Assembly: GCA_024277135.1 (NCBI GenBank)
Contig: JAJRVV010000103.1
Coordinates: 1,207-65,206, forward strand
Source of the DNA: Chloroflexota bacterium
GTDB lineage: Bacteria; Chloroflexota; Anaerolineae; Promineifilales; Promineifilaceae
Reading direction: 5' to 3'
DNA: 64,000 nucleotides
This document shows, piece after piece, positions 17,556 to 62,975 of the stretch. Within the stretch, counting starts at the first letter, position 1. Each line of letters begins with the position of its first letter. The notes under the pieces were generated by a model. It had not been told where the DNA came from, searched no databases, and worked only from the letters and a program-made list of their open reading frames with translations. A program made the translations under genes and the position numbers.

Positions 17556-17589
17556 CAATCCAAAATCCAAAATTGCAAATCCGAAATCC
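17556..17589. repeat. AAAATCC-type heptamer array in the pgk 5' leader
   Basis: ccaatccaaaatccaaaattgcaaatccgaaatcc, ending 13 nt before the pgk ATG. Confidence 0.8.
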
Positions 17590-20263: not shown

Positions 20264-20395
20264 CTCTTTCCCCCGTAATCTTCACGTAATCTTTTAGACA
20301 GATTTCTTTAAGCTGCCTTTTCTACACTGTGCCGGATGCAGGCAATTTTGCCTGCCCGCATAACGGTAAAATTTATGGAAAAGAGGTGTGATTTG

Positions 20396-21175
20396 ATGAG
20401 AAAGTTAACGATGTTGAGTTTGTTGTTACTGGCGCTGCTGTTGCTGGCGGCGTGTAACACGGCCGTCGAAGAAGCGGCGGTGGTGGATACGGCCGTGCAG
20501 TCGGCAGATGAAATGAGCCAGGAAGATGAGATGGCCGATTCCGAAGAGGAAATGCAAGATGACGCCATGGACTCCGAAGACGACATGATGGATTCTGAAG
20601 AGGAAATGGAGGATGACGCCATGGATTCTGACGACGACATGATGGACTCTGACGACGACACGCACGATGGCGCCATGGACTCTGAGGACGACGCGATGGC
20701 TGAAGGGGAAGAGATGGCGGATGAAGAGATGATGCTGGCTGTCTGGCAGGAAATCCCCCTCGTTAACGCCCGTACCGGCGAAACCTTCACCCTGGCCGAT
20801 TTTTCCGGCAAAACCATTTTCATTGAGCCGATGGCTACCTGGTGTACCAACTGCCGCCGCCAGCTCAACAATGTCAAGCAAGCGCGCACCGACCTAAACA
20901 GTGATGAAATCGTCTTCATCGGCCTGAGCCTGGAAACGAACCTGGACGCGGCCACCCTGGCGGCCTACGCTGATAACCAGGGGTATGAGTGGCTGTTTGC
21001 CGTCATGACGCCGGAGCTTTTGCAGGCGATGGCCGAGGATTTCGGGCAAGTCTTGACTTCGGCGCCATCCACGCCTCACTTCGTCATTCGGCCGGATGGC
21101 ACGTTTACGGAATTGGCGACTGGCATTGAGTCGCCAGAAGAAATTTCGGCCCAACTGCTGGCCGCCAGCGGGTAA
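20396..21175 (+). CDS. TlpA/ResA-like thiol:disulfide oxidoreductase lipoprotein with Asp/Glu/Met-rich repeat linker
   Basis: Start at MRKLTMLSLLLLALLLLAAC (lipobox). WCTNC redox motif. About 70 aa of DSEDDMM / DSEEEME-type repeats. Confidence 0.7.
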   Translation: MRKLTMLSLLLLALLLLAACNTAVEEAAVVDTAVQSADEMSQEDEMADSEEEMQDDAMDSEDDMMDSEEEMEDDAMDSDDDMMDSDDDTHDGAMDSEDDAMAEGEEMADEEMMLAVWQEIPLVNARTGETFTLADFSGKTIFIEPMATWCTNCRRQLNNVKQARTDLNSDEIVFIGLSLETNLDAATLAAYADNQGYEWLFAVMTPELLQAMAEDFGQVLTSAPSTPHFVIRPDGTFTELATGIESPEEISAQLLAASG

Positions 21176-46887: not shown

Positions 46888-47853
46888 ATGAGTGTATCCG
46901 TCATAGTCACCGTCAAAAATGAAGGGGAAGCGATACGGCCGTTGCTCGATTCCCTCATGGATCAGGTGCGCCAACCGGACGAGGTTGTCATTTGTGATGG
47001 CGGTTCCAGCGACAATACCGTCGAAATCATCGAATCGTACCGGCGGTGGCTGCCCATCAAAATCGTCATTTCCGCCAACGCCAACATCAGCCAGGGGCGC
47101 AACCGGGCCATTGAGGCCGCCGCCGGCCCCATCATCGCCGCCACCGATGCCGGGGTGGCGCTTTCCCCCTACTGGCTGGCTGATTTGGTTCAGCCCATCG
47201 AACAAGGGGAAACGGCCGTCGTTAGCGGCTGGTTCGAGCCAGACCCGTACACCGATTTTGAAGTGGTCATGGGATCAACCGTCTTGCCCGCTCGTCAAGA
47301 CATCAATCCTGACGAGTTTCTGCCCTCCAGCCGCTCCATCGCTTTCCTCAAATCCGCCTGGGCCGAAGTCGGCTGCTATCCCGAATGGCTTGATTATGGC
47401 GAAGACCTGGTGTTTGACCTGGCTCTCCGCAAAAAATATGGCGCCTTTGTTTGGGCGGATACGGCCGTGGCCTACTATCGGCCGCGCGGCAGCCTGCGCG
47501 CCTACTTCCGCCAATACTACGCCTACGCCCGCGGCGACGGCAAAGCCAACTTATGGCCGCTGCGCCACGCCATACGCTACTTCACCTATCTGGTGGCCCT
47601 GCCTGCCATTTTCCGTCTCATCTGGCGCGAAAAACGCGCGGGTTGGCTGCTCCTCTTCGCTGGCGTCGGCGCTTACAGCAGCCGTCCCGCTCAACGCTTG
47701 TGGGAACACACCTGGGGTTGGCGGCCGCCGGCCCGCGTCCGCGCCTTCGCCCTCATCCCCATCATTCGGCTCATCGGCGATGTGGCCAAGATGATGGGTT
47801 ATCCGGTCGGGTTGTGGTGGCGTTGGCGTCACCGGCATCAAATTCCCGGCTAA
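46888..47853 (+). CDS. family 2 glycosyltransferase
   Basis: VSVIVTVKNEGEAIRPLLDSLMDQ...VVICDGGSSDNTVEII; C-terminal membrane helices. Confidence 0.8.
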   Translation: MSVSVIVTVKNEGEAIRPLLDSLMDQVRQPDEVVICDGGSSDNTVEIIESYRRWLPIKIVISANANISQGRNRAIEAAAGPIIAATDAGVALSPYWLADLVQPIEQGETAVVSGWFEPDPYTDFEVVMGSTVLPARQDINPDEFLPSSRSIAFLKSAWAEVGCYPEWLDYGEDLVFDLALRKKYGAFVWADTAVAYYRPRGSLRAYFRQYYAYARGDGKANLWPLRHAIRYFTYLVALPAIFRLIWREKRAGWLLLFAGVGAYSSRPAQRLWEHTWGWRPPARVRAFALIPIIRLIGDVAKMMGYPVGLWWRWRHRHQIPG

Positions 47854-47919
47854 AGTCGCTTTTTGAGGATAGAGGTGTTGTTTTAATCTGTTTTAATCAA
47901 CAAGCGACACAATGGCGTC

Positions 47920-47963
47920 AACAGCCTCTTGCTTTAACGAACAAGAGGCTGTTTGCGTTTCTC
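47920..47963 (+). terminator. intrinsic terminator nested in a longer stem
   Basis: AACAGCCTCTTG ctttaacgaa CAAGAGGCTGTT TGCGTTTCTC, flanked by the 11-bp pairing ATGGCGTCAAC / GTTGACGCCAT. Confidence 0.6.
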
Positions 47964-48030
47964 TCCGGCTGGCCTGGTTGACGCCATTTGCGGGGAAATA
48001 CCCTTCCTGCACCGAGCAGAAAACCTTGCT

Positions 48031-48240
48031 CTAGCAGTTTGTCGGAGAAGTTAGATTCTCCAAACAAAGATAATTTTGGTGTAAACTTTGGGCATGACAA
48101 GAAAATTCAGAACCGCCAACTACGAAAAGACATTAGCAGTTTGTCGGAAAACCCCATTCTGTAGCCGAGGTATCCTTACCTCGCCTCTGGGAACGCGGTA
48201 GGATATCGGGGTTGTAGCTACTTTTCCGACAGCCTGCTAG
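48031..48240. repeat. MITE-like element, copy 2 (duplicated left arm)
   Basis: Left arms CTAGCAGTTTGTCGGAGAA (48031-49) and TTAGCAGTTTGTCGGAAAA (48133-51); right arm TTTTCCGACAGCCTGCTAG (48222-40). The 41-nt core is identical to copy 1. The right arm supplies the murJ stop codon. Confidence 0.7.
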
Positions 48241-49844
48241 AGGGGAGGTTTTCCCAACCGGCTCTGAAGCAGGGCAGCCAACCGCCTAATTTCGCGGATG
48301 CCCAGCAAATAACTGGCGACAACATACACGGCCGCGCCTACCAGACTGCCCGCGACTACCTGCCACAAAACGGCCGTCTGCGCCAACCCCCGCAACGCCA
48401 GCCACATACCGCCCGCCATCACCCCGCTGGCCGCCAACATGCGCCACAAGCCGCTCCAGAGGAGACGGCCGTTCAGCCCGCCCATCTTCCGCCGCAGCAG
48501 CCAGAGCAGCGCCGCCGCCTCCACAAAATTAGAGAGGCTGAACCCCAACGCCAGCCCGCCCAATGGATGCCAGCCCAAAGCCGGGAACAGCCCCCGAATC
48601 AGCCAGACGCTCAGCCCCGCCATGGCCGCGATTTGGATAGCGCCCGCCAGCACCGGCGTCAGCGTATCGCTCAGGGCAAAAAAGGCGCGGTTCACCACCT
48701 CCAGCGCCGACAGCGCCAGCAAGCCCAACGCATAAAACAGCAGCGCCCAGGCCACCAGCCCGGCGTCTTCCGCCACAAACGCCCCGCGCTGGAACAACAG
48801 CACAATCACCGGCTGGCCCACCAGCATCAGCAGCGCGGTGGCGGGCAGCGCCAAAAACGCCAACAGGCGCAGGGAGTCGGACAGAATCCGGCGCATCTGG
48901 GCAAACGCTTCTTGCGCCGCCAGATCGGCCATGGTGGGAAAAGCGGCAATGCCCAGCGCCTGCCCCAACATCCCCTGCGGCATCAGCATCAGACGCAAGG
49001 CCAGCCGGGAGGCGGGCACGCTTTCCGGGGTGATGAGGCCGCTCAGGAACAGGGTGATAAAGGCGTTAACCTGGCTGAAGGACAGCCCCAACACGCGCGG
49101 GGCCATCAATTTGAGTACTTGGCGCACACCGGGATCACGCAGAGTGAAGACGGCCGTATACCGCGCCCCCTTCCACCTCAATCCCGGCAGTTGAATCAGC
49201 AAATGGCCCAACGCGCCTGCCACCGTCCCCCACGCCATCCCCGCTGCCGCGCCCAAATCGGTGCGGCCGCCCGCCACCGCCCCGGCAATAATCCCCAGAT
49301 TGTAGATAATGGGCGCAATCGCAGGCAAAAGAAAATGCTGCCGGGCTTGCAACGTCCCCATCATCACGCCGCTGGCGCCAAAAATGATGGAGGAAAGCAG
49401 CATGATCCGCATCAACCGCACCGTCAGCGGCAGCAGTTCCGGATTCTGGGCCACCAGCTTGGGCAAAAAAGTCTCGACCAATTCTGGCGCGAACAAGATA
49501 GCTGCGCCAGCCAGCGCCGTCACCGCTGCCACAATTAAATTGAGCACGCCAGAAAACAACCGCCAGGCGCCGGCATCGTCATCGCGGGCAAAATAAGCGG
49601 CAAAGGTGGGGATAAACGCCGAACCGATGGCGCCGCCAGCCACAATGAAGAAAATGGCGTCGGGGAACGTGATGGCGGCAAAGTATGCGGTCGCCTCTTG
49701 CTCCAGCCCCAGGTAGTTGGCCTGCACCATATCCCGCGCCAGGCCCAACAGCTTGCTCACCAGGAAGGCGGCGCTGACAATGCCAGCAGCGCGCATCACT
49801 TGTCGTCTGGCGGTTTGGGAGGCGGTCTCTGTGGCGTCACTCAT
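48237..49844 (-). CDS. murJ: lipid II flippase MurJ
   Basis: 535 aa, about 14 TM helices. N-terminal VSKLLGLARDMVQANYLG...AYFAAITFPD pattern of MurJ/MviN. Confidence 0.85.
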   Translation of the reverse strand: MSDATETASQTARRQVMRAAGIVSAAFLVSKLLGLARDMVQANYLGLEQEATAYFAAITFPDAIFFIVAGGAIGSAFIPTFAAYFARDDDAGAWRLFSGVLNLIVAAVTALAGAAILFAPELVETFLPKLVAQNPELLPLTVRLMRIMLLSSIIFGASGVMMGTLQARQHFLLPAIAPIIYNLGIIAGAVAGGRTDLGAAAGMAWGTVAGALGHLLIQLPGLRWKGARYTAVFTLRDPGVRQVLKLMAPRVLGLSFSQVNAFITLFLSGLITPESVPASRLALRLMLMPQGMLGQALGIAAFPTMADLAAQEAFAQMRRILSDSLRLLAFLALPATALLMLVGQPVIVLLFQRGAFVAEDAGLVAWALLFYALGLLALSALEVVNRAFFALSDTLTPVLAGAIQIAAMAGLSVWLIRGLFPALGWHPLGGLALGFSLSNFVEAAALLWLLRRKMGGLNGRLLWSGLWRMLAASGVMAGGMWLALRGLAQTAVLWQVVAGSLVGAAVYVVASYLLGIREIRRLAALLQSRLGKPPL

Positions 49845-50052
49845 GGCGGGGGATTATAAACCGACCAGCCAGGTTTTGGAAACCCGGCCGGTCTTCACCC
49901 AAATAAAATCGGGCTGACTCGTTGGAGCCAGCCCGCTTGTTTTTGGTGAGAGTCAGGAACGCCGAAACCTGACTCTCGTTAAAAGGAGGAGAAGAAGAAG
50001 AGATTTTTTACCCTTCACCGTCTATTCTATGATTGAATCCCGCCCATTGCAG

Positions 50053-50096
50053 TACGCAGAAACTACGCCAAACCTACGTTTTTGCTACGCAGCGCG
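50053..50096 (+). promoter_or_regulatory. four TACG(C/T) direct repeats at exact 11-bp spacing
   Basis: tacgcagaaac tacgccaaacc tacgtttttgc tacgcagcgcg; repeat starts at 50053, 50064, 50075 and 50086. Lies between divergent murJ and the LCP gene. Confidence 0.4.
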
Positions 50097-50214
50097 AGGA
50101 ATAGGCCGGTAATTGCGGGGCGGCGGGAAGGCAATTTTAGGTTATAATTCTGCCGGTATCGGTAATTTTCTTCACATAAAGTATAGCAAGGGAACTCTGA
50201 TTTCGATTAGACCT

Positions 50215-51735
50215 ATGGCACGCAAGTTTTTCTCCCGACCCACGCTTTTTGTCATCATCCTGCTGGTTGGCATCTTCGGCGTATTAGCCTGGCAGCAGGT
50301 GAGCCAATCCCAGGCGCAGCCGGCGCCAACCCGCGCCCTGGTCGCCCACGCCCCGCCGCCGCCGACCGCCACCTCTACCAGCCCGCCGCCGCCCACGTAC
50401 ACGCCCGCCGGAACCAACACGCCCGGCCCCAGCCTGACGGCATCCCCCTTCAGCACAAACACGCCGGAACCGACGGACACGGCCGTGCCCACCATCACCC
50501 CCACCAGCATCCCCCAATCCAACCCCACCATGGCCGTCACCGGAACCGGCCTGCTGCTAGACGGTGTTCCCACGCCTGTTACCCCCATCCCCTCGCCAGT
50601 ACCCACGTTTGAAGCGCCGGATAATGTCACCAATATCCTGCTGTTGGGACAGGACATGGAAGTGGAAACCGGCGATGTCCGCACCGACACCATGATCATC
50701 GTCTCGATCAATCGGGAAACAAAAACCGCGTCCATGGTATCTTTGCCCCGCGATTTGTATGTGTATTTACCCAATCACACCATGAATCGGTTGAACACGG
50801 CCGTCAAACGAGGCGGCGTGGAACTGCTGGAACAAACCATCCTGTACAATTTCGGCATTCCCATCCATTACTACGCCCTGGTCAATTTTGATGGATTCAA
50901 AGAGATCATTGACAGCATGGGCGGCGTCAACATCAACGTCAGCTGCCGGTTGGAAGATTGGCGTCTCAAATCGCCGGAACTGGACATTTATGATGAAGAC
51001 AATTATGAATGGTTTACTCTGGAACCGGGCGTGTACGACATGGACGGCGACACCGCCCTTTGGTATGCTCGCTCCCGGCTCACCAGCAGCGATTTTTACC
51101 GGGGATGGCGGCAGCAGCAGCTGCTGCGGGCCATCCTCAACCAGGGGATTGACCTGGGCATGATCACTGAAGCGCCCACTTTATGGGGCGTCTACAAAGA
51201 TCGAGTGGAAACCGACCTGGACATTGGCCGAATTTTGCAACTGGCTGCCATGGCGACGGCCGTCAAGGAAAACGGGGTCCAGCATTTGTACCTGGCGCGG
51301 GGGACGTATAACTGGACGGCCGAAACCGGCGCCCAACTGCTCCTGCCTCGATGGGAAGGCGCCAACGGCATGGAAGAAACTTTCACCAATCTGTTTGAAC
51401 CCATCGCCATGCGGAAATCCGGCAGGCAGGCTATTTTTGTGGAACTGATCAATGCCACCGACAATGAAGACCTGGCCATCCTGGCGGCGGATAACCTGGC
51501 GTGGCAGGGGTTTGCGCCGGTGATTGGCCCGGCCGAATATCAGGAAGATGCCCGCACCAGCATTGAGTATTTCGGCCCCAACTTCAAAGGTTCTTATAAT
51601 CAATTGGTAGCCTGGGTGTTTAATCGAGGCCAATCATCTACCAAACTGGTGGATGATCCTGATTACCCGTATGATTACCGGGTGACGCTGGGCGACGATT
51701 ATAATCCTTGCCGCGATGCGATTTACGCGCCCTAA
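50215..51735 (+). CDS. LytR-CpsA-Psr (LCP) family protein
   Basis: Start at MARKFFSRPTLFVIILLVGIF (TM anchor), then a PT-rich linker. ILLLGQDME...RTDTMIIVSINRETKTASMVSLPRDLYVYLP. Confidence 0.8.
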   Translation: MARKFFSRPTLFVIILLVGIFGVLAWQQVSQSQAQPAPTRALVAHAPPPPTATSTSPPPPTYTPAGTNTPGPSLTASPFSTNTPEPTDTAVPTITPTSIPQSNPTMAVTGTGLLLDGVPTPVTPIPSPVPTFEAPDNVTNILLLGQDMEVETGDVRTDTMIIVSINRETKTASMVSLPRDLYVYLPNHTMNRLNTAVKRGGVELLEQTILYNFGIPIHYYALVNFDGFKEIIDSMGGVNINVSCRLEDWRLKSPELDIYDEDNYEWFTLEPGVYDMDGDTALWYARSRLTSSDFYRGWRQQQLLRAILNQGIDLGMITEAPTLWGVYKDRVETDLDIGRILQLAAMATAVKENGVQHLYLARGTYNWTAETGAQLLLPRWEGANGMEETFTNLFEPIAMRKSGRQAIFVELINATDNEDLAILAADNLAWQGFAPVIGPAEYQEDARTSIEYFGPNFKGSYNQLVAWVFNRGQSSTKLVDDPDYPYDYRVTLGDDYNPCRDAIYAP

Positions 51736-51845
51736 TTTCACAACTCTAGCCAAGCCGTTGTGTTATTAAAATTGTGACTTACGGCCGTTCGGCCTTACGG
51801 CCAGGCCATCCCTATCCCCAATTCAGCAAGAACAGGAGACACTCC

Positions 51846-53174
51846 ATGAACGATAGACGCGAAATCCTGGGCTGGACGATGTATGACTGGGCCAATTCGG
51901 CCTTCAGCACCACCGTCGTCACCGCCCTGCTTGGACCATACATTCTAGCCCTAGCCGAATCCAGCAGCGCGCCGTTGATGATTTTTGGCACGGCCGTCGA
52001 ACCCGCCGCCATCTTCCCCTTCAGCGCCTCCATGTCCGTTTTGCTGCAAGTCCTTTTCTTGCCCCTGCTGGGAACCATCGCCGACTACACCCACCTCAAG
52101 AAAAAGATGATGATGGCTTTCGCTTACGTGGGAGCGGGGGCCACCATTCTGCTCTTTTTAGTCCAGGCCGACATGCCCATCCTCGGCACCAATGGCGCCA
52201 TTTTGCTGGCCAGCTTCCTGGTTATCATCGCCAACCTGGCCTTTGGCGCCGCTATCGTTTTTTACAACGCCTTTTTACCCGAAATCGTCTCCCCTGACCG
52301 GCGGGACGCCATCAGTTCCAAAGGCTTTGCCTATGGCTACCTGGGCGGCGGCCTGCTCTTGTTAGCCAATTTGGGACTGTTGCAAACGATGGAAGACACA
52401 GCGTTAGCCGTCCGCATCAGCCTGGCCAGCGCCGGGGTGTGGTGGTTGGCGTTCACCTACATTTTCCCGCAAAAACGGCTGGTGCAGCGCGATGCCGCCC
52501 GCCAACTGCCGGAAGGAACCAGCCTGTTTGCCCACGGCATTCGCCAGATTCGGCACACGCTTAACGAAATGCGTACCAAGTACCCGATGACTTTCCGCTA
52601 TTTGATCGCATACCTGATTTACAATGACGGTATCCAAACGGTCATCATCGTTGCCACCGCCTTTGCCGCTGATGAGTTGGGCGTGGAAACGACTAATTTA
52701 CTCCTGCTCGTCTTGATGATTCAGTTTATGGCCTTTGCCGGAGCGTTTTTCTTTGGCTGGCTGGCCGGGCGAATGGGGGCCAAACGAGCCATCATGATCA
52801 GCCTTGTCATCTGGTCGGGGGTTGTGATTTATGCCTTCGCTTTGTTGTACACCACGTTGCAGTTATTCATCCTGGGGGCGGCGCTGGCCATTGTGTTTGG
52901 CGGCTCGCAGGCGTTGAGCCGGTCGCTGTTCTCACAAATGATTCCGCGAGACCATGAGGCGGAGTATTTCGGCTTTTACGAAATCAGCGAACGGGGCACG
53001 TCATGGATTGGGCCGCTGTTGTTTGCGGCGGCGGTGCAGATCACCGGCTCCCAACGCATTGCCATTACGTCGCTGATTCTTTTCTTTGTGGCCGGTTTGC
53101 TGCTGCTCAGCCGGGTGGATGTGAAACAGGCGATGCTGGATTCGGGGAATGATCCGGAGGGGGTTATCCTGTAA
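51846..53174 (+). CDS. MFS transporter, UMF1/Atg22-like family
   Basis: MNDRREILGWTMYDWANSAFSTTVV N-terminus and 12 TM helices. Start at the ATG at 51846 behind GGAGA. Confidence 0.75.
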   Translation: MNDRREILGWTMYDWANSAFSTTVVTALLGPYILALAESSSAPLMIFGTAVEPAAIFPFSASMSVLLQVLFLPLLGTIADYTHLKKKMMMAFAYVGAGATILLFLVQADMPILGTNGAILLASFLVIIANLAFGAAIVFYNAFLPEIVSPDRRDAISSKGFAYGYLGGGLLLLANLGLLQTMEDTALAVRISLASAGVWWLAFTYIFPQKRLVQRDAARQLPEGTSLFAHGIRQIRHTLNEMRTKYPMTFRYLIAYLIYNDGIQTVIIVATAFAADELGVETTNLLLLVLMIQFMAFAGAFFFGWLAGRMGAKRAIMISLVIWSGVVIYAFALLYTTLQLFILGAALAIVFGGSQALSRSLFSQMIPRDHEAEYFGFYEISERGTSWIGPLLFAAAVQITGSQRIAITSLILFFVAGLLLLSRVDVKQAMLDSGNDPEGVIL

Positions 53175-53225
53175 TGTTCTGAGAGAGGTGCGACGCACTT
53201 TTCAAGCGCGTCGCACCTGGAGTTA

Positions 53226-53660
53226 TTAATCATCAAGCTCTCGTATCTTTTTTCGCGTTTGTTTCTTTTGTTTGCGCTGCCGTTTTTGGGACAGCCGCTT
53301 TTCCACGGCCGTCCGGCTGGGCTTAGTCGGTTTGCGTTTTTTGCGTTTGACGAGGGCGGCGGCCAAGAGGGCTTGGAAGCGGGCGACGGCCGTTTCCCGA
53401 TTCCGGTGTTGGCTGCGTGACTCCTGCGCATCAAGGCGCAGAACCCCCTGTTTATCCAGGCGGGTCGCCAGCTTTTTCAGCAGACGTTGGCGGGTTTTCT
53501 CATTCAGGCTGGGCGATTGGGCCACATCAAACAACAGCGTCACCCGCGTGGCCGAGCGGTTGGCGTGCTGACCGCCCGGCCCGCTGCTGGCGCTAAAACG
53601 GAATTCCAATTCGGCCGTTGGAATACTAAGATGTTGGTTAATAACGATGGTTTCATCCAT
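53226..53660 (-). CDS. arfB: alternative ribosome-rescue factor ArfB (peptidyl-tRNA hydrolase)
   Basis: GPGGQHANRSATRVTL GGQ domain plus a Lys/Arg-rich C-terminal tail. Confidence 0.85.
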   Translation of the reverse strand: MDETIVINQHLSIPTAELEFRFSASSGPGGQHANRSATRVTLLFDVAQSPSLNEKTRQRLLKKLATRLDKQGVLRLDAQESRSQHRNRETAVARFQALLAAALVKRKKRKPTKPSRTAVEKRLSQKRQRKQKKQTRKKIRELDD

Positions 53661-53713
53661 GCCTTGATTGTACCAGACCTGACAGCCTGACCACTTTTGG
53701 TTACACTCCGTTT

Positions 53714-54220
53714 ATGCAACTCGTTAATCAATACTCTGCGCTGTTTTCCCTGATCTTACCAGTGGGGCTGCTGGCAACGGCCGTTGTCTGGCGTCATCAT
53801 CCCCTTCGCAGCCGGATCGTGGGCGGCTTCGGCCTGTTGCTGCTGGTTTTCATCGGCTACTTCCTGATCCAGCCGGAAGCTGATGCAGTGGCTGTCAATG
53901 AAGTGGAAAGGCTGTTGACCGCGGCGGACGGACGGCCGCCGGACAATCGTCCGCTGTTCCTGTACCTCTACTCTGACTATTGAGCGGCCTGCCTGCGGGC
54001 CAAACCCATCGTGGATGGGTTAGAAGCAGAGTGGGGCGAGCAAGTGTACGTGGTGCGCCTCAACGTCCACGATAAGGGCGTGACGCCCCTGCTCCAGCGA
54101 CTCAACTTCCGCTTTACGCCTACCTTCATCCTGTTCGATGGCGAAGGGCAGGAGGCGTGGCGCACTACCGGCATCGTGAATCCTGACGAAGCCAGCCAAA
54201 AGGTAACCGGCTTGCCGTGA
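53714..54220 (+). CDS. membrane-anchored thioredoxin-fold protein with one in-frame TGA at the first Cys of the CxxC motif (selenoprotein candidate, otherwise pseudogene)
   Basis: Track ORFs 53714-53983 and 54011-54220 are in the same frame, separated only by the TGA at 53981-53983. The joined sequence reads ...PLFLYLYSDY-[TGA]-AACLRAKPIVDGLEAEW...FTPTFILFDGEGQEAWRTTG, a Trx fold with its cis-Pro region. Confidence 0.45.
54003..54021 (+). promoter_or_regulatory. hairpin 20 nt downstream of the in-frame TGA (SECIS-like position)
   Basis: AACCCATC gtg GATGGGTT: perfect 8-bp stem with apical loop GUG. Confidence 0.35.
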
Positions 54221-55227
54221 CCATGCCCAATCAAAAATCAAAAATCCAAAATCCAAAATCCCGCCACGTCCACCTCTTTTTCATGGACGGCGTGGGCATG
54301 GGCGGGGACGACCCGGCGGCGAACCCGTTTGTGACGGCCGCACTCCCCTACCTGACCGGGTTGTTTGGGGAGAATTGGTTTTTTCCCAACGGCCGTCTCA
54401 CCACCCCTCGCGCCAGCCTCATCCCCACCGACGCTAACCTGGGCCTGCCGGGACGGCCGCAATCCGCCACCGGGCAGGCCGCCATCCTCACTGGCCGCAA
54501 CGCGCCCCAACTGGTCGGCGAGCATTACGGCCCCAAACCGAACCCGGCCGTCGCCGCCGTCATCCGGCAGGGGACGTTATTTCACGATGTGGTCGCTATC
54601 GGCGGACGCGCCGCGCTCATCACCCCCTACCCCCAACCCTATTTCGACGCCATCGCCAGCGGCCGGCGGCTGCTCTCCAGCGTGCCCCTGGCCGTCACCG
54701 ACGCCGGTTTGCCTTTGATGACGGCCTATGATTTGCGAAACGGCCGTGCCGTCAGTCCCGGCTTCACCGGCGCCGGGTGGCGGGACCACCTGGGCTACAG
54801 CGACATCCCCCTCATCACCCTGGCAGAAGCCGGGCAGCGCATCGCCGCCATCGCCCGCGAACACCATTTCAGTTTCTTTGAACATTGGCCCAGCGACCGC
54901 AGCGGGCATCGGGGTTCGTTGGATGCGGCCGTCAGCCACCTGGAAATGCTCGACGAAGCCATCGGCGGCTTGCTGGCGGCGTGGGATGACGAACATGGCC
55001 TGCTCATCATCACCAGCGATCACGGCAACATCGAAGACAAGTCCCAGCGCCGACACACCCGCAACCCGGTTCCCACCATCCTAGCCGGCCGGGGGCACGC
55101 CGAATTTGCCGCTCAGATTCACGATTTGACAGATATTGCGGCCGCAGCGCGTCAATTCCTCGGCCTGAACCAACAGTCAACAGCTAACAACCAACAGTTA
55201 ACAGTTAACCCAAGAGGTGAAACATGA
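54217..55227 (+). CDS. metalloenzyme-superfamily phosphomutase (cofactor-independent phosphoglycerate mutase-like)
   Basis: HVHLFFMDGVGMGGDDP, SATGQAAILTG, ITSDHGNIED motifs. The N-terminal tag PNQKSKIQNPKS and the C-terminal tail NQQSTANNQQLTVN are repeat-encoded. Confidence 0.55.
   Translation: MTMPNQKSKIQNPKSRHVHLFFMDGVGMGGDDPAANPFVTAALPYLTGLFGENWFFPNGRLTTPRASLIPTDANLGLPGRPQSATGQAAILTGRNAPQLVGEHYGPKPNPAVAAVIRQGTLFHDVVAIGGRAALITPYPQPYFDAIASGRRLLSSVPLAVTDAGLPLMTAYDLRNGRAVSPGFTGAGWRDHLGYSDIPLITLAEAGQRIAAIAREHHFSFFEHWPSDRSGHRGSLDAAVSHLEMLDEAIGGLLAAWDDEHGLLIITSDHGNIEDKSQRRHTRNPVPTILAGRGHAEFAAQIHDLTDIAAAARQFLGLNQQSTANNQQLTVNPRGET
54228..54262. repeat. AAAATCC-type heptamer array just inside the 5' end of the phosphomutase-like CDS
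   Basis: caatcaaaaatcaaaaatccaaaatccaaaatccc. Confidence 0.8.
55171..55212. repeat. CAACAGT-type heptamer array (6 units) at the 3' end of the phosphomutase-like CDS
   Basis: caacagt caacagc taacaac caacagt taacagt taaccca. Same family as 311-380. Confidence 0.8.
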
Positions 55228-55724
55228 GTATCGGTTCTGAACAATTTCGGGACGCCCTGCGCCATTTTCCGGCCGGGGTGACGATTGTGACCATGAAAAC
55301 GAAGGATAGCGAGGTGCGGCATGGCCTGACGGTATCCGCCTTCTCCTCCATCTCGCCCAAACCGCCGCTGATCATGGTGGCGATTGACCACCGCGCCAAT
55401 GCGTACAAAATCATGGAACAGGAAGGGACAGTGTTTGCCGTCAATATCCTGGCCCAAGACCAGATGGAGTTATCCAATCGGTTTGCCTGGATTAAGGATG
55501 AGGATCGGTTTGCACAAGGGGATTGGGGCACGGCCGTCACCGGCGCGCCCATTCTGCAAAACGCCCTGGTCTGGCTCGACTGCACCATTTTTGCCCGGCA
55601 CAACGTCGGCGACAACACCCTGTATCTGGGCCAAGTTCAGGCCAGTCAAGTCAACCGCCCCGAAGAGCCGCCGCTCATCTATTGGAACCGGGGATACCGG
55701 CAGCTAAAGTTAGGGGATGATTGA
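55224..55724 (+). CDS. flavin reductase-like FMN-binding protein
   Basis: FRDALRHFPAGVTIVT...GLTVSAFSSISPKPPLIMVAID pattern. Overlaps the upstream stop by 4 nt. Confidence 0.75.
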   Translation: MSIGSEQFRDALRHFPAGVTIVTMKTKDSEVRHGLTVSAFSSISPKPPLIMVAIDHRANAYKIMEQEGTVFAVNILAQDQMELSNRFAWIKDEDRFAQGDWGTAVTGAPILQNALVWLDCTIFARHNVGDNTLYLGQVQASQVNRPEEPPLIYWNRGYRQLKLGDD

Positions 55725-55915
55725 AATGAACAATGAGAAATGAGCAATGAACAAGTTATTCGTTGTTCATTACTCATTGTTCATTATTCATTACTCATTA
55801 TTCATTACTCATTGTTCATTACTCATTGTTCATTATTCATTACTCATTGTTCATTACTCATTATTCATTACTCATTATTCATTACTCATTGTTCATTACT
55901 CATTGTTCATAGCTC
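55724..55915. repeat. about 190-bp TCATTAC/TCATTGT/TCATTAT heptamer array with an inverted head
   Basis: gaaatgaacaatgagaaatgagcaatgaacaa, then more than 20 units of (t)cattactcattgttcattattcatt... Lies between convergent genes. Track ORFs 55740-56033 and 55747-55962 merely translate it. Confidence 0.85.
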
Positions 55916-57348
55916 ATCCTGGCCGCCGCCCATTCGTACAACTGCTGATACCCCAACGCTGACCGGCGCCAGGAGAAATCCCGGATCATGCCGTTGCCTT
56001 GAATTTGCCGCCAGCTATCCTTGTCCACATTGAAAATATAAATCGCGCGTTGCAGCGCCTGCCAAAAATCCTCTGTGGCGTAATTGTGGAAGGTGAAGCC
56101 GGTGATGCCGTCCTGCACCGTATCCGCCAGGCCGCCGGTGGCGCGCACCACCGGCACGCTGCCATAACGCATGGCGATCATTTGCCCCAATCCACATGGC
56201 TCAAACAAGGATGGCATAAGGAACAAATCACTCCCGGCATAAATAAGCGGGGCCAGACCAGCGTTATAGGCCAAAAATGCGGTCATTTTTTGCGGATGCT
56301 GGCTGGCCAGATGGGCAAACATCCGCTCATACTGCGCCGCCCCGGTCCCCAGCGCGATGAACTGCGCTTCCCCGGCGTAACCGTTCATCAGCAAGTGGAC
56401 GACATGGCCGGTGATGTCCATCCCTTTTTGCCAATCCAGCCGGGAGATCATAGCCACCAGGGGGATGTCGTCCCGTAGGGGCAGACCCGCTTTTTCTTGC
56501 AGCGCGCGCCGGTTGGCGGCACGGCCGTCCATCTGCCCCACCCCATACGTTTGCGCCAATCGCGTATCCGTTTCTGGATTCCACACGGCCGTGTCCAACC
56601 CATTGAGAATGCCAAACAAATCCCCCTGCCGGTGACGCAGCAACCCATCCAGACCGGCGCCGCCATCAGACGTCATAATCTCGCGGGCGTAGGTAGGGCT
56701 GACCGTGTTCACCAACGTGGCATGGAAAATGCCCCGCGCCATAAAATTCACTTCCCCATACCCTTCTTCCCGCAGCGAATGGGTGCAAAGCTGAAGATAG
56801 TCAAAAATATCCCAGCTCGTTTTGCCCTGGTGCGCCAGATTGTGAATGGTGAAGACAGACGCCATCTTTTGAAAAGCGGGATGCCGTTGCCCGGCGGTCG
56901 CCAGCCAGGTGACGGCCGGGGCTGCGTGCCAATCATGCGCATGAACCAGATCCGGCCGCCAAGCCAGCGCCAACGTCAATGCCAGCGCCGCCCGGCTGAA
57001 AAAGGCAAACCGGTACGGGTCGTCGCCATACCCATACGTTTGGGGGCGAGCAAACAAATTGCGCTCGGCGATGAAATAAACCGGCACATCGCTGTCCGGC
57101 AGACGCCCCTGGAAAACGCCGGCTTCTATCAAACCGGAGCCGGTGGGCACGCGCAGCGTATGCGGCATAGGGGTCACGCCCTCAACCCCGCGCTCAATCG
57201 GCAGATAGGCGGGCATGACCACCCGCACATCATGCCCCAGCGCCCGCAGCGCTTTAGGCAAAGAACCGGCCACATCGCCCAGACCGCCCGTTTTGGCGAA
57301 GGGGGCGGCTTCAGCGCTGATGAACAAAATTTTGAGCGAATTTGTCAT
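55900..57348 (-). CDS. glgA: glycogen synthase
   Basis: KILFISAEAAPFAKTGGLGDV and full-length GlgA. Start set to MTNSLK (ATG 57348). Confidence 0.9.
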   Translation of the reverse strand: MTNSLKILFISAEAAPFAKTGGLGDVAGSLPKALRALGHDVRVVMPAYLPIERGVEGVTPMPHTLRVPTGSGLIEAGVFQGRLPDSDVPVYFIAERNLFARPQTYGYGDDPYRFAFFSRAALALTLALAWRPDLVHAHDWHAAPAVTWLATAGQRHPAFQKMASVFTIHNLAHQGKTSWDIFDYLQLCTHSLREEGYGEVNFMARGIFHATLVNTVSPTYAREIMTSDGGAGLDGLLRHRQGDLFGILNGLDTAVWNPETDTRLAQTYGVGQMDGRAANRRALQEKAGLPLRDDIPLVAMISRLDWQKGMDITGHVVHLLMNGYAGEAQFIALGTGAAQYERMFAHLASQHPQKMTAFLAYNAGLAPLIYAGSDLFLMPSLFEPCGLGQMIAMRYGSVPVVRATGGLADTVQDGITGFTFHNYATEDFWQALQRAIYIFNVDKDSWRQIQGNGMIRDFSWRRSALGYQQLYEWAAARMSYEQ

Positions 57349-57358
57349 ACCCTCACCA

Positions 57359-58576
57359 TCATTTACCGCCAGCCCACCCCACAAACAGGATGACGGCCGT
57401 CCCCGCCAACGCCGCCCCAAACAAAAAGGGAGCCTGGGGGCCGAATCCGGGCCAGGAACCGACGCCCTGCCACAGTATACCGGCGATCAAGCTGGCCGGT
57501 AAAGCCGCCAATCCCACCGCCGCGTTGTACACGCCAAACGCCGTTCCCCGCTGTGCCTCTGGCGCCAGATCGGCTACATACGCTTTAGCCGTGCCTTCAA
57601 AGGCGGCGTAGTAAATGCCATACAACGCATAGAGCAGCCAGATGTGGACGGCGGTTCTCGCCAGGGCAAAGCCGAGATAGAGCGCCCCATACACCAGCCA
57701 GCCGCCGATGATGATTGGGCGACGGCCGTATCGATCTGACAGCGATCCCATTTTGCCCGACAAAGCGGCATACACCAGGTTAAACGCGGCCAGCATCCCC
57801 AAAATGGCGACGATGCTCAATCCCCGCTCCTGCGCCCGCAAAATCAGGAAGGCGTCGGCGGAATTGCCCAGGGTAAACAGGATGATGATGAACAAAAAGC
57901 GGCGAAAACGGCTGTCGAATTCTTTTAACGACAGCCGGGGCCGTTTTCGGGGACGGGTGACGGCCGTTTCCTGCACCCCGATAACTAATGCCGCCACCGC
58001 CAGCCCGCCGGGCACGATGCTCCACAACACCACTCGCTGGAACGCCGTCCGGCTCAAAGCCAGGCCATTCGATTGCACCAGCCACACCACTGCCAGGGCG
58101 ATGAGGATGCCCAGCATGGCCCCCGCTGTGTCCCCGGCCCGGTGCAGGCCATAGGCTCGTCCTCGCTGCGCCGGGGTGATGCTGTCGGCGATCAACGCAT
58201 CGCGCGGCGCGGTGCGGATGCCTTTGCCCACTCGGTCAGCGAAGCGCACGCCGAGGACGGCCGTCCATGACCCGGCCCATACCAGTAGCGGCCGTACCAG
58301 CGCCGAGAGACCATACCCGGCCGCTGCCAACTGTTTGCGGCGGCCTAATTTATCCGAAATCCAACCAAAATATACTTTGAGTAAACTGGCCGTCGTTTCG
58401 GCAATGCCTTCAATCAGGCCAATCGTCGCCGCGCGCGCGCCCAGCACGTTGGCCAAAAACAGGGGCATCAAGTTTAAGACCATCTCGCTGGCGATGTCGT
58501 TGAGAAAACTGGTGGCAGTCACTGCCCAGATGTTACGTGGCAGTGATTTTTGTGAGGGAGGTGTTTCCGTTATCAT
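57359..58576 (-). CDS. MFS transporter
   Basis: 405 aa with 12 TM helices and the GWISDKLGRRK loop motif. Confidence 0.75.
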   Translation of the reverse strand: MITETPPSQKSLPRNIWAVTATSFLNDIASEMVLNLMPLFLANVLGARAATIGLIEGIAETTASLLKVYFGWISDKLGRRKQLAAAGYGLSALVRPLLVWAGSWTAVLGVRFADRVGKGIRTAPRDALIADSITPAQRGRAYGLHRAGDTAGAMLGILIALAVVWLVQSNGLALSRTAFQRVVLWSIVPGGLAVAALVIGVQETAVTRPRKRPRLSLKEFDSRFRRFLFIIILFTLGNSADAFLILRAQERGLSIVAILGMLAAFNLVYAALSGKMGSLSDRYGRRPIIIGGWLVYGALYLGFALARTAVHIWLLYALYGIYYAAFEGTAKAYVADLAPEAQRGTAFGVYNAAVGLAALPASLIAGILWQGVGSWPGFGPQAPFLFGAALAGTAVILFVGWAGGK

Positions 58577-58622
58577 TTTTTTCTCCTGATGCCGGGATTA
58601 TCACGCCATTTACCAAAGGCGG

Positions 58623-58672
58623 CAATTAACAATTAGCAATTAACAATTAGCAATTAGCAATTAGCAATTCAT
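58623..58672. repeat. CAATTAG/CAATTAA heptamer array
   Basis: caattaacaattagcaattaacaattagcaattagcaattagcaattc. Related words at 1918-1950, 59503-59525 and 62117-62165. Confidence 0.8.
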
Positions 58673-58735
58673 TATTCCTCCCCCCTGTTGTACAATAGAG
58701 TTAATGCGTGCATATTTGGAAACCAGGAGACAACC

Positions 58736-59503
58736 ATGAGTATTCGTCGAATGCTGCCCTTCATCCTCATCAACATCATCGTCTCCGCCGCCGTGGTGCT
58801 GGCGGTTCTGTTTTGGTGGGAGCGGCGGCAGGCGGAAACGGCAGAACCGACGCCGCCGGCCGTCATTGAAGTCACAGCGCCGCTGGCAACGGCCGTGCTC
58901 GACCTGGCCGCGCTGCCCACCGACACGCCGGAGCCGGAAGGCAACCAACCGCTCATCCACATCGTCAAAGCCGGCGAAACGCTGGGCAGCATCAGCCAAT
59001 TCTATGAGGTAGATTTAGAAGACATCATGACGGTGAACGGGATCGGCAACCCTAACTTGCTGTCGGTGGGGCAAGAACTGGAAATCCCGATTGGCGGCAT
59101 TCCCACACCCACGCCGCCGCCCACAGATACGCCGGCCCCGGCCCAAATCCCCTCGCCCATCCCCACCGAAGATTTGTCCGGGAACGGAGAAGTGATTGTG
59201 GAGATCACGGCCGTCACCGGCAGCGGCCGTCTCGCCGAAGAAATCGTGCAAATCACCAATCGGGGCGGTCAACAAATCGCTCTGCTGGGTTGGCAGCTCG
59301 CCGACGCCGATGGCTTTGTCTATACTTTTGGCCCCGTTACTCTTTTTGGGGATGGGGCAGCCATTCAACTGCACACCGAAACGGGCATAGACACCCACGC
59401 TGACTTGTTTTGGGGGCTGGAAACGCCCATCTGGGCCAGCGGCGAGCTGGTCACTTTATCCGATGCCGATGGTAACACTCAGGCTACTTATCAAATTCCG
59501 TAA
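58736..59503 (+). CDS. membrane-anchored LysM + lamin-tail-like (LTD) domain protein
   Basis: Start at MSIRRMLPFILINIIV (AGGAGA RBS). LysM IVKAGETLGSISQFYEVDLEDIMTVNGI. C-terminal VEITAVTGSGRLAEEIVQITNRGGQQIALLGWQLAD. Confidence 0.65.
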   Translation: MSIRRMLPFILINIIVSAAVVLAVLFWWERRQAETAEPTPPAVIEVTAPLATAVLDLAALPTDTPEPEGNQPLIHIVKAGETLGSISQFYEVDLEDIMTVNGIGNPNLLSVGQELEIPIGGIPTPTPPPTDTPAPAQIPSPIPTEDLSGNGEVIVEITAVTGSGRLAEEIVQITNRGGQQIALLGWQLADADGFVYTFGPVTLFGDGAAIQLHTETGIDTHADLFWGLETPIWASGELVTLSDADGNTQATYQIP

Positions 59504-59533
59504 TACCAATTGACAATTAATTGGAGGTTCATC

Positions 59534-59752
59534 ATGCGTGGCTTGATTGATAAAAAGGGAGAGCAATTCGCTTACGTTGAAGGCGCCGCTTTATACACAT
59601 TAGACGGAGAGTTGACGGGCCGCATCAAAGGGGATTTCGTCATTGACCTGGCCGGTAACAAGGTCTGGCGCATTGTGGGCGATGGCGTCTATTCCCTAGA
59701 CAGCATGGAAACAATCGGCTTTTTCAGCGGCGAGAAACAAGAGCAGGGATGA
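59534..59752 (+). CDS. small hypothetical protein
   Basis: 72 aa with GGAGG 6 nt upstream of the ATG. Internal duplication (GELTGRIKGDFVIDLAGNKVWRIVGDGVYSL). Confidence 0.5.
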   Translation: MRGLIDKKGEQFAYVEGAALYTLDGELTGRIKGDFVIDLAGNKVWRIVGDGVYSLDSMETIGFFSGEKQEQG

Positions 59753-59825
59753 CAGGGTAACAAGGTGACAGGGTGATGGGGTGGTTTCATCCTTCATCCT
59801 TCATAATTCAAAGCAAGGAGGTTTT

Positions 59826-60698
59826 ATGCGATTAGGCGCACATATGAGTGCGGCCGGCGGCGTTTACACCGCCTTTGCTCGCGGCCAGAAGGCTGCCTGC
59901 GAGACCATTCTGGTGTTTACCAAGAGCAACCGGCAGTGGAAAGCGAAACCATTGGCCGATGAAGATGTCCAGAATTACCGGGAGGCGGCCGCCGAACATA
60001 GCGGTATTTTCCCAACGGCCGTTCACGCCAGCTATCTGATTAACCTCGCTTCCCCCAAGCCCGATTTGTGGCAGAAATCCCTCGACGCGCTCAAAATCGA
60101 AGTGGAGCGCGCCGGGCAGCTAGGCATCCCCCTGCTCGTCTTCCACCCCGGCTCCTACGTCACCGCCGATGAACAAACCGGACTGGATAACATCGTCCGC
60201 GCTTTGCAGCAGCTTTTGGCGGATACGGCCGATTCCGCCCCCGGCGTGACAGTGTGTCTGGAAACAATGGCCGGGCAGGGTACCAACCTGGGGCATCGCT
60301 TCCAGCAGTTGGCCTATTTGCTGGAAAACGCCGGGCCATCGGAACGGATGGGCGTCTGCTTCGACACCTGCCACGTCTTCGCCGCCGGATACGACATCCG
60401 CACCCCGGAGGCGTATGCAGCCACGATGTCTGAATTCGACCGGGTGATCGGCCTGGAACAGATCAAATGCTTCCATTTCAACGACAGCAAATTTGAGTTG
60501 GGCCGGCGCAAAGACCGGCACGCCCACATCGGCGACGGCTTCATCGGCGGGGAAGGATTCGCCAACTTCCTCAACGATCCGCGCTGGGCAGAGTATCCGG
60601 CCCACCTGGAAACACCCAAAACGGAAGAGGATGAGGACGGTAACGAGATTGAAATGGATGTGGTCAACCTGGCAACTTTACGCAGCTTAATCAAATAG
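59826..60698 (+). CDS. nfo: endonuclease IV
   Basis: MRLGAHMSAAGG..., FHPGSY, CLETMAG, CFDTCH, FHFNDSK...DRHAHIGDG metal-ligand motifs. AAGGAGG RBS. Confidence 0.9.
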   Translation: MRLGAHMSAAGGVYTAFARGQKAACETILVFTKSNRQWKAKPLADEDVQNYREAAAEHSGIFPTAVHASYLINLASPKPDLWQKSLDALKIEVERAGQLGIPLLVFHPGSYVTADEQTGLDNIVRALQQLLADTADSAPGVTVCLETMAGQGTNLGHRFQQLAYLLENAGPSERMGVCFDTCHVFAAGYDIRTPEAYAATMSEFDRVIGLEQIKCFHFNDSKFELGRRKDRHAHIGDGFIGGEGFANFLNDPRWAEYPAHLETPKTEEDEDGNEIEMDVVNLATLRSLIK

Positions 60699-62196: not shown

Positions 62197-62931
62197 TTAC
62201 GGGGTTTGGCTGGCGGCGGCTTTGTCTAGCAGCCAGGTGAGACGGCCGGTGTGGGGTTGAATGCGGGCGGCGGGGCATTGGATGGGGTCGGGTTTGGGGG
62301 CCAGCACGGCCGTCAACGCCGCCGCCTTATTCTCCCCCGCCACCAGGAAAATAACGTGGCGGGCGTCGTTGAAAACGAGGGGGGTGAGGGTGATGCGGTG
62401 GGCGGGACGGCCGTCATAATCGGCAGTGACGGCGATGACGGGCTGACTGGTTTCTGCCGGCGGAATCGGGCCGGGGAACAGGGAAGCGGTATGCCCGTCG
62501 CCGCCCATCCCCAACAAAACCAGGTCGAATCGAGGCCAGACACGGCCGTCTTCGGCAAATTGACGCAGGAGATGAGCGTAATGGGTGACGGCCGTCGCCG
62601 CCGCTGATTCGCCCAGCACCCGGCGATAATTTTTGCCAGGAATGAGTAAATGCTCCCGCCATAGCTGCGCCACCTGCCCATAATTGCTGCCCGGATCATC
62701 AGGCGGAACCAGCCGCTCGTCCCCCCAAAAGAGATGGGTTTGCGCCCAGGGCACGGCCGCGCGATACGGCGATTGGGCCAGCAGTTCATACAACCGTTGG
62801 GGTGTGCCGCCGCCGGACAGCGCCGCCAAAAAACGGCCGCGCGCCGCTACCGCCGCCCGCGCTATCTGGGCAAACATCTCCGCCGCCGCCCGGCTCAAGC
62901 TCTCCTTGTCAGGAAAAACCTGAATGTCCAT
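62197..62931 (-). CDS. pgl: 6-phosphogluconolactonase
   Basis: LSGGGTPQRLYELLA and WGDERLVPPDDPGSNY. Start set to MDIQVF (ATG 62931). The track start at 62964 would add the repeat-encoded MKSKIRNPKSK. Confidence 0.85.
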   Translation of the reverse strand: MDIQVFPDKESLSRAAAEMFAQIARAAVAARGRFLAALSGGGTPQRLYELLAQSPYRAAVPWAQTHLFWGDERLVPPDDPGSNYGQVAQLWREHLLIPGKNYRRVLGESAAATAVTHYAHLLRQFAEDGRVWPRFDLVLLGMGGDGHTASLFPGPIPPAETSQPVIAVTADYDGRPAHRITLTPLVFNDARHVIFLVAGENKAAALTAVLAPKPDPIQCPAARIQPHTGRLTWLLDKAAASQTP

Positions 62932-62975
62932 TTTGGATTTTGGATTGCGGATTTTAGATTTCATCCTTCATCCTT
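62931..62975. repeat. AAAATCC-type array followed by GAAGGAT-type units in the glk-pgl junction
   Basis: ttttggattttggattgcggattttagatttcatccttcatcctt. Confidence 0.8.

Follow-up and report, generated by a model that had tools for sequence, protein, structure and literature searches.

Background

Bacterial selenoproteins that combine a thioredoxin fold with a UxxC motif, in which selenocysteine (Sec, U) precedes a conserved cysteine, have been catalogued as Trx, thiol:disulfide interchange protein, DsbA-like, DsbG-like and other families (PMC13188914 Table 1). In the Trx selenoproteins (PF00085, UxxC; PMC13188914 Table 1, PMC1794560) Sec stands in for the first Cys of the CxxC motif, Cys-containing homologues are found, and the selenocysteine insertion sequence (SECIS) lies within the coding region just past the UGA. 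The family named 'Thiol:disulfide interchange protein' (UxxC motif, Pfam PF13098, representative WP_011366075.1; PMC13188914, PMC9312934) has recorded members in Geobacter metallireducens, G. uraniumreducens and Syntrophus aciditrophicus (PMC1794560 Table 3). For the bacterial SECIS (bSECIS), the model of Zhang and Gladyshev, as summarised in PMC13188914 (Fig. 2), comprises an apical loop of 3-9 nt, an upper stem of 4-16 bp, a G within the first two positions of the loop and then a G or U, a spacing of 16-37 nt between UGA and loop, and an MFE (minimum free energy) no higher than -7.5 kcal/mol. Here we describe a gene with comparable features in a 64,000-nucleotide stretch of DNA from a Chloroflexota bacterium (GenBank assembly GCA_024277135.1, contig JAJRVV010000103.1, positions 1,207 to 65,206 of the forward strand), which we refer to in its entirety as the window. 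The gene lies at 53714..54220 on the plus strand and contains an in-frame TGA at 53981-53983, which is very probably, on comparative sequence grounds, a programmed Sec codon served by a candidate SECIS hairpin at 54003..54021.

A conserved TGA at a catalytic position

The original prediction for this locus, made from the letters of the window alone, had pointed to two open reading frames (ORFs) that share one frame and are separated only by the above TGA. Our analysis bears this out: an ORF at 53714..53983 is closed by the TGA, and the same frame is then open until a second TGA at 54218-54220. The single frame, the Pfam matches and the full-length homologues described below together define a complete gene of 168 codons with an ATG start, in which the UGA is codon 90 and the second TGA is the terminator. 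The joined product reads RPLFLYLYSDY-[TGA]-AACLRAKPIVDGLEAEWG...FRFTPTFILFDGEGQEAWRTTG around the interruption, just as the prediction had quoted it, with its later part quoted also as NFRFTPTFILFDGEG. The TGA is the first codon of a predicted redox motif, U-A-A-C (53981..53992; TGA GCG GCC TGC), whose resolving cysteine, Cys93, is encoded at 53990-53992, and it corresponds to the N-terminal nucleophilic Cys of the thioredoxin CxxC motif.

An initial protein search recovered only two relatives, P0001 and P0002, each with a 'W' at the critical position. The DNA of both contigs has TGA at this codon and neither protein is reproduced under translation table 11, indicating that the 'W' arose artificially when the genes were called with code 4. 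A scan of GTDB with one genome per species identified YSDY-TGA-xxC in metagenome-assembled genomes (MAGs) labelled Candidatus Promineifilaceae bacterium, Anaerolineae bacterium and Chloroflexota bacterium, as well as YSDY-TGC-AAC in an Anaerolineales MAG, and a metagenome scan supplied 27 further TGA loci. The resulting set of 39 related loci (the contigs of the two database homologues, four loci from GTDB and 33 from metagenomes) allowed alignment of orthologues at this codon, a comparison named beforehand as one on which the prediction might founder. It turned out in its favor: TGA is kept at the homologous position in 32 of the 39, the other seven (L006, L014, L016, L018, L022, L023 and L025) having the Cys codon TGC. 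The TGA-bearing loci derive from independent ENA, Logan, JGI and NCBI assemblies, their gene G+C content spans 43-59%, and counting the window there are 29 distinct sequences, whose proteins are 26-67% identical to that of the window. The closest relatives, L003 and L004, belong to Promineifilaceae/Anaerolineae lineages, and the host is a Chloroflexota bacterium near these groups.

We then considered the 50 codons that follow the TGA. Across nine pairwise comparisons the ratio of nonsynonymous to synonymous substitution rates (dN/dS) is 0.05-0.29 at dS values of 0.7-3.0. Given that the synonymous sites are near saturation and the ratio is nevertheless this low, the frame beyond the TGA is translated and under selection; comparative sequence evidence of this kind establishes that the UGA is decoded. 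This bears directly on the alternative that the prediction itself had raised, a nonsense mutation from TGC/TGT to TGA; had it happened recently, from one of these codons or from TGG, an ordinary CxxC thioredoxin-like gene would have become a pseudogene. The existence of Cys-containing relatives would be compatible with such an event, as would the public annotation of the gene as a fragment of 89 amino acids (P0203). However, an identical TGA in 32 other loci of such low protein identity and with saturated synonymous sites, the dN/dS values past the TGA, and a hairpin with compensatory changes that follows the TGA only in TGA forms (see below) all speak against a pseudogene; TGA conservation and downstream dN/dS already exclude it for practical purposes, and we rate it as highly improbable. 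The same selection on the downstream frame leaves a sequencing or assembly error, altering one base of a Cys or Trp codon, without explanatory force. Nothing specific favors such an error beyond the doubt that attaches to any one sequence, and the same codon recurs in assemblies made independently of each other, so that its probability is negligible.

To survey the wider family, a profile was run exhaustively against 1.84 billion protein cluster representatives, which returned 1412 matches at E <= 1e-3, of which the best 150 were classified. Among these 150, 86 are full-length (135-190 aa), and the column aligned with the TGA contains Cys in 69, 'W' in 12 and Ser in 3. The same 150 include many fragments of 83-86 residues that end in ...YSDY, along with C-terminal fragments of 56-95 residues that begin right past the TGA or further downstream. 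Judged by these end points, the N- and C-terminal fragments are the halves of TGA genes that gene callers have split; the NCBI record of the window's own gene is likewise the N-terminal part only. Selenoprotein families are classically recognized by such a pairing of Sec and Cys at a catalytic redox residue. Source names of the cluster members are generic ('thioredoxin family protein', 'thiol-disulfide isomerase/thioredoxin'), and a scan of NCBIfam release 20 at E <= 1 gave generic thioredoxin, DsbD and TraF-like matches only, with no match to selenoprotein-specific models such as NF045500 (GOS_C), NF040730 (SaoT), NF047660 (HUIPC) or NF041383 (VPGU). As a separate observation, three members (P0024, P0039 and P0042) are SxxC variants with Ser at the Sec/Cys position.

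The entries with 'W' at the Sec position comprise P0001, P0002, P0034, P0044, P0049, P0061, P0065, P0069, P0073, P0100, P0119 and others; for P0001 and P0002 the DNA itself confirms an origin in code 4 gene calling, and the rest presumably arose in the same way. Taken at face value, the 'W' in P0001, P0002 and ten further representatives would imply that the genetic code is reassigned, as in code 4 or code 25, so that UGA specifies an amino acid. Against this, of the 57 large ORFs in the window 24 are closed by TGA, as are this gene and four further homologues of the Sec form, and the P0001 and P0002 entries fail to match their own DNA under table 11; we accordingly attach next to no weight to reassignment. 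A scan of the window for other coding frames interrupted by TGA yielded no second convincing selenoprotein candidate, the frames flagged elsewhere being adjacent genes that share a frame by chance.

A covarying hairpin downstream of the TGA

The prediction had further claimed a perfect 8-bp hairpin at 54003-54021 with its loop at a distance from the UGA typical of bacterial SECIS elements, and both parts of this claim hold. The candidate bSECIS core hairpin (plus strand) has a stem of 8 bp, pairing 54003-54010 with 54014-54021, and an apical loop GUG at 54011-54013. Its sequence, AACCCATC-GUG-GATGGGTT, falls within the codons for K-P-I-V-D-G-L. The hairpin begins 19 nt past the UGA and 27 nt separate the UGA from the loop. 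When compared to the bSECIS model, the hairpin lies inside every published constraint: a loop of 3 nt, an upper stem of 8 bp, loop bases GUG, a spacing of 27 nt and an MFE of -10.4 kcal/mol for the core hairpin. The local stretch of 71 nt folds at -30.5 kcal/mol versus a mean of -22.1 kcal/mol for shuffled sequences (z = -2.9). The core alone reaches -7.5 kcal/mol in 18 of the 29 distinct Sec forms. The E. coli fdhF and fdnG elements are likewise coding-region stem-loops past the UGA, with a G and then a U opening a small loop at 16-37 nt; in contrast to them, the window element shows no sequence similarity and no evident bulged U, and the loop is of 3 nt in Promineifilaceae-like members and of 5-8 nt in marine members. 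A scan of the whole window with Rfam at the gathering threshold gave no match.

Covariation was assessed for the above 8-bp helix in an ungapped alignment of 28 distinct TGA sequences. Standard pairs fill 87.5% of the cells, versus 24-47% in controls that shift the 3' partners by 1-3 columns, and changes on both sides of a pair are seen in four of the eight pairs (32 cells). In none of 500 shuffles did the fraction of paired cells, the number of double changes or the covariation score come up to that of the real alignment. An independent RNAalifold prediction contains the six outer pairs, plus a minor stem upstream (columns 17-19 of the alignment pairing with 24-26), which shows little covariation and was not taken into the element. 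The covariation extends to synonymous codon choice. For Asp, all 13 cases in which the partner codon starts with A use GAU and all 10 in which it starts with G use GAC, while Pro is encoded by CCC opposite GGG (13 cases) and by CCU opposite AGG (7 cases). The hairpin Gly is GGG in 14 of 16 cases, as against 25% GGG among Gly codons in the window, and an Arg in the 3' arm is encoded by AGG or AGA in Sec forms versus CGN in Cys forms.

In the seven Cys forms, similar residues are encoded at these positions, yet on average only 4.6 of the 8 pairs can form, at -5.0 kcal/mol, whereas the 29 Sec forms have a mean of 6.9 of 8 pairs at -8.9 kcal/mol. Hence, as far as alignment and folding can tell, this structure is conserved among the TGA forms, to which it is specific, being largely absent from the Cys forms. 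Conservation of the hairpin among orthologues, which had been suggested as a check, was found, with compensatory changes where the codon is TGA and most Cys homologues lacking the structure.

A predicted membrane-anchored thioredoxin-fold protein

With Cys substituted at the TGA, the window protein passes the Pfam gathering cut-offs of both Thioredoxin_2 (PF13098; 28.8 against 27) and Thioredoxin (PF00085; 24.8 against 23.5). A family profile compared with the PDB matched a thioredoxin (6zom, E = 1.7e-12) and the DsbD C-terminal domain (~1e-9). In the profile alignment the first Cys of WCGPC coincides with the TGA column, and the cis-proline (R-A-I-P-T-L) with the T-P of the FTPTF strand, in agreement with the earlier assertion that the TGA replaces the first Cys of the family CxxC while the second Cys and the cis-Pro are intact. 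Cys93 is invariant in the 28-sequence alignment (A5), and Pro136 (54119..54121, plus strand), the predicted cis-proline that aligns with that of thioredoxin, is invariant in the family alignments. Separately, in a wider alignment (A6), five CxxS variants (P0197-P0201) carry Ser at the resolving-Cys column, giving monothiol forms.

The thioredoxin-fold domain spans approximately residues 60-165 (53891..54208, plus strand), as delimited by the profile matches to PDB entries and by Foldseek searches with a structural model. It is preceded by an N-terminal membrane anchor (53735..53869, plus strand; boundaries approximate), comprising two hydrophobic helices (approximately residues 8-26 and 34-52) linked by a short basic loop, WRHHPLRSR; NQYS is a further conserved N-terminal motif of the family. 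The AlphaFold model is of the homologue P0001 rather than of the window protein itself and was built from an input alignment of 32 rows, with a mean predicted local distance difference test score (pLDDT) of 82.7. In it, helices 5-28 and 31-52 are followed by an alpha-beta-alpha-beta-alpha-beta-beta-alpha succession in thioredoxin order, and the Sec position, residue 86, stands directly ahead of the active-site helix 87-103. Foldseek searches with this model returned thioredoxins as the best matches, with TM(target) scores of ~0.8 and root-mean-square deviations of 2.1-2.5 A, and the DsbD C-terminal domain shows the highest sequence identity among solved structures, at 30%. The hydropathy scan, the P0001 model, and the Pfam and PDB profile matches thus sustain the initial claim of a thioredoxin fold anchored by two transmembrane (TM) helices. 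Based on these sequence and model data, the product is likely to be a membrane-anchored thiol-disulfide oxidoreductase.

A tally of Lys and Arg residues over 31 family members gives 70 in the inter-helix loop, 7 at the N-terminus and 34 in the acidic segment after the second TM helix. By the positive-inside rule the basic inter-helix loop would be cytoplasmic, which would turn the window protein's thioredoxin domain outward; we therefore lean towards an extracytoplasmic location of the catalytic domain, on the outer face of the membrane. As an observation on a different branch, L006 and P0179-P0201 (the MRNFIRFFSYRSF... subfamily), which have Cys only, are rich in K/R at the N-terminus and again in the segment that follows helix 2, which suggests an inverted membrane topology for this subfamily.

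These features set the protein apart from its closest described counterparts. It shares with the Trx selenoproteins the thioredoxin fold, Sec at the first Cys of CxxC, Cys homologues and a putative in-coding SECIS just past the UGA, but differs in having the two-helix anchor and in the motif NQYS...YSDY-U-x-x-C...KPIVDGLE...FTPTF, which replaces the WCGPC context. TrxA is a soluble protein of ~105 aa with WCGPC. The window protein scores 29.2 bits against the NCBIfam thioredoxin equivalog TIGR01068, far below the cut-off of 96.8, and is thus not an orthologue of this cytoplasmic protein. With the PF13098 'Thiol:disulfide interchange protein' selenoproteins it has in common the best Pfam family and the UxxC motif alone, and the taxa differ, with Chloroflexota and marine lineages here as opposed to Deltaproteobacteria there; no relatives of that named family are among the matches of our protein database searches, including the exhaustive one. 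The DsbD C-terminal (gamma) domain is also a membrane-tethered, extracytoplasmic thioredoxin domain. However, in DsbD it uses Cys and is part of a fusion with an electron-transfer domain of eight helices and two cysteines and with an Ig-like domain at the N-terminus, whereas the window protein has two helices only, no DsbD beta or alpha domain, and a predicted Sec nucleophile. Its match to the NCBIfam DsbD model NF001419 is of 24.1 bits, as against a cut-off of >= 330, and covers only C-terminal model positions 460-569. By domain content and score, then, the window protein is not DsbD.

Probable decoding of the UGA as selenocysteine

The conserved TGA, the Cys homologues, the covarying hairpin and the dN/dS values together support the core of the original prediction, a UxxC thioredoxin-like selenoprotein with a SECIS element. 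Since the conserved SECIS-like structure and the Sec/Cys pattern among homologues point to the established bacterial pathway, we infer by analogy that Sec is inserted and that SelB mediates the insertion. Accordingly worded as a model, the ribosome would meet the UGA at codon 90, where the hairpin at 54003-54021 would act as a bSECIS element and recruit SelB-GTP with Sec-tRNA(Sec), so that Sec is inserted and termination does not occur; the TGA at 54218, which lacks such a hairpin, would end the protein. The resulting active site, U90-A-A-C93, would lie at the N-terminus of the active-site helix, with Sec replacing the attacking nucleophile and forming a selenenylsulfide with C93 in the course of thiol-disulfide exchange. 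With Sec as the attacking nucleophile, the protein would be expected to cycle between the selenolate/thiol and the selenenylsulfide states, exchanging with substrate disulfides or thiols.

Several observations weigh against this assignment. The hairpin is weak in some marine members (4-6 pairs, -3.5 to -6.2 kcal/mol), and the G-U that opens the loop also begins a conserved Val codon, where it is invariant, so that this invariance does not count as independent evidence. The topology is derived from charge counts alone, and the Cys subfamily of the L006 type shows the opposite charge pattern. When E. coli SelA, SelB and SelD were searched with tblastn in the window plus all related loci (237 kb in total), none gave a match, and a tRNA scan of the 64-kb window and 30 related loci found no tRNA-Sec. 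These absences say little, as the window and the 173 kb of related loci are a small sample. Chloroflexi are listed among the phyla with selenoproteins (PMC1794560), and Dehalococcoidia genomes with 46-49 selenoproteins are recorded in BSepDB (PMC13326102). From these Sec users in the phylum we infer that this genome encodes the Sec machinery.

The absence of Sec machinery genes from the 64-kb window is also compatible with a different decoding of the UGA, either as Trp, Cys or Arg by hairpin-stimulated near-cognate read-through, or by termination followed by re-initiation of the thioredoxin part, for which gene callers do place alternative starts downstream, such as the GTG at 54011. A product started there, however, would be devoid of the conserved xxC, though the codons concerned keep their frame and are conserved directly past the TGA. 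Read-through with another amino acid is at odds with the position being the catalytic CxxC Cys in relatives, a signature Sec/Cys pair, with the fit of the hairpin to SelB-type bSECIS geometry, and with the presence of Sec users among the Chloroflexota. We hence consider these alternatives, taken together, improbable, and retain Sec insertion as the favored explanation.

Gene neighborhood

Immediately downstream, at 54217..55227 on the plus strand, is an uncharacterized gene of the metalloenzyme (alkaline-phosphatase/iPGM) superfamily (Pfam PF01676, 1e-20), with weak NCBIfam matches to iPGM and phosphopentomutase. Its first possible start, the GTG at 54217, overlaps the stop codon of the selenoprotein gene. 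Ten loci, with Sec as well as Cys forms among them (L003, L004, L005, L008, L009, L010, L014, L016, L022 and L023), have a PF01676 gene of 47-79% identity as the next gene downstream, and the retention of this neighbor next to both forms suggests an operon and a functional link. The third gene in the conserved string codes for a flavin reductase (55224..55724, plus strand; Pfam Flavin_Reduct, 4e-39), and the same order of thioredoxin-like, PF01676 and flavin reductase genes recurs in L003, L004, L005, L008 and L014. From this arrangement, the selenoprotein gene is probably co-transcribed with the PF01676 and flavin reductase genes. No CcdA- or DsbD-type partner was found among the ten neighboring genes scanned (46888-60698).

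On the other side, the divergent neighbor at 53226..53660 on the minus strand codes for ArfB, the alternative ribosome-rescue peptidyl-tRNA hydrolase (NCBIfam NF006718, 3e-44, above the cut-off). ArfB is the upstream divergent neighbor in the eight related loci with tblastn matches (L001, L002, L003, L005, L007, L009, L011 and L013). The placement of a ribosome-rescue factor beside a UGA-recoding gene is curious; we count it as conserved context alone and see no mechanistic link.

Other features of the window

A tandem heptamer, AAATCCA, repeated three to five times, occurs at 2743-2775 (minus), 17556-17588 (plus), 54235-54260 (plus) and 62929-62961 (minus), in each case at the 5' end of a gene or just within it, the four genes being unrelated; it would read 'KSKIQNPKSK' there if the first starts are real. 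The 12-mer AAATCCAAAATC, allowing <=1 mismatch, has 13 occurrences in the window against 0.68 expected. The heptamer repeat is absent from all 41 related loci, and it may be an element of the 5' untranslated region or leader that is specific to this genome.

A second candidate envelope thiol-disulfide oxidoreductase is encoded at 20336-21175 (plus); it is lipoprotein-like, with an ordinary-Cys WCTNC motif and an acidic linker of MDSEDD-type repeats. The minus-strand ORF that overlaps it, 20308-20955, is probably spurious.

Conclusions

UxxC thioredoxin-fold selenoproteins with a SECIS inside the ORF are well established, and nothing in our analysis overturns what is known of them. It adds a membrane-anchored Sec-thioredoxin to the Chloroflexota selenoproteome, that of the Promineifilaceae/Anaerolineae lineages included, and it identifies as a true selenoprotein gene what public databases have mis-annotated in several ways, as a protein truncated at the TGA, as split halves, or as an entry with 'W' at the Sec site. 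The last of these, the code 4 'W' pattern, is usable for mining further missed selenoproteins. The family is also a natural data set, with 29 distinct Sec forms alongside many Cys, Ser and CxxS forms, in which one can study how a SECIS constrains codon and amino-acid choice in a conserved motif, and how Sec and Cys are exchanged. For the organisms themselves, the finding implies that they carry the Sec-decoding trait and need selenium.

We tentatively raise the possibility, to which we give somewhat less than even credence, that the YSDY-U-x-x-C proteins are a selenoprotein family present in no catalogue yet. Such a family would consist of two-helix-anchored Sec-thioredoxins, probably extracytoplasmic, distributed in Chloroflexota MAGs (Promineifilaceae, Anaerolineae) and many metagenome contigs, with a SECIS embedded in, and co-evolving with, the conserved motif KPIVDGL. 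If this is true, and the gene forms an operon with those for the metalloenzyme and the flavin reductase, it would point to an unrecognized selenium-dependent redox pathway at the cell envelope.

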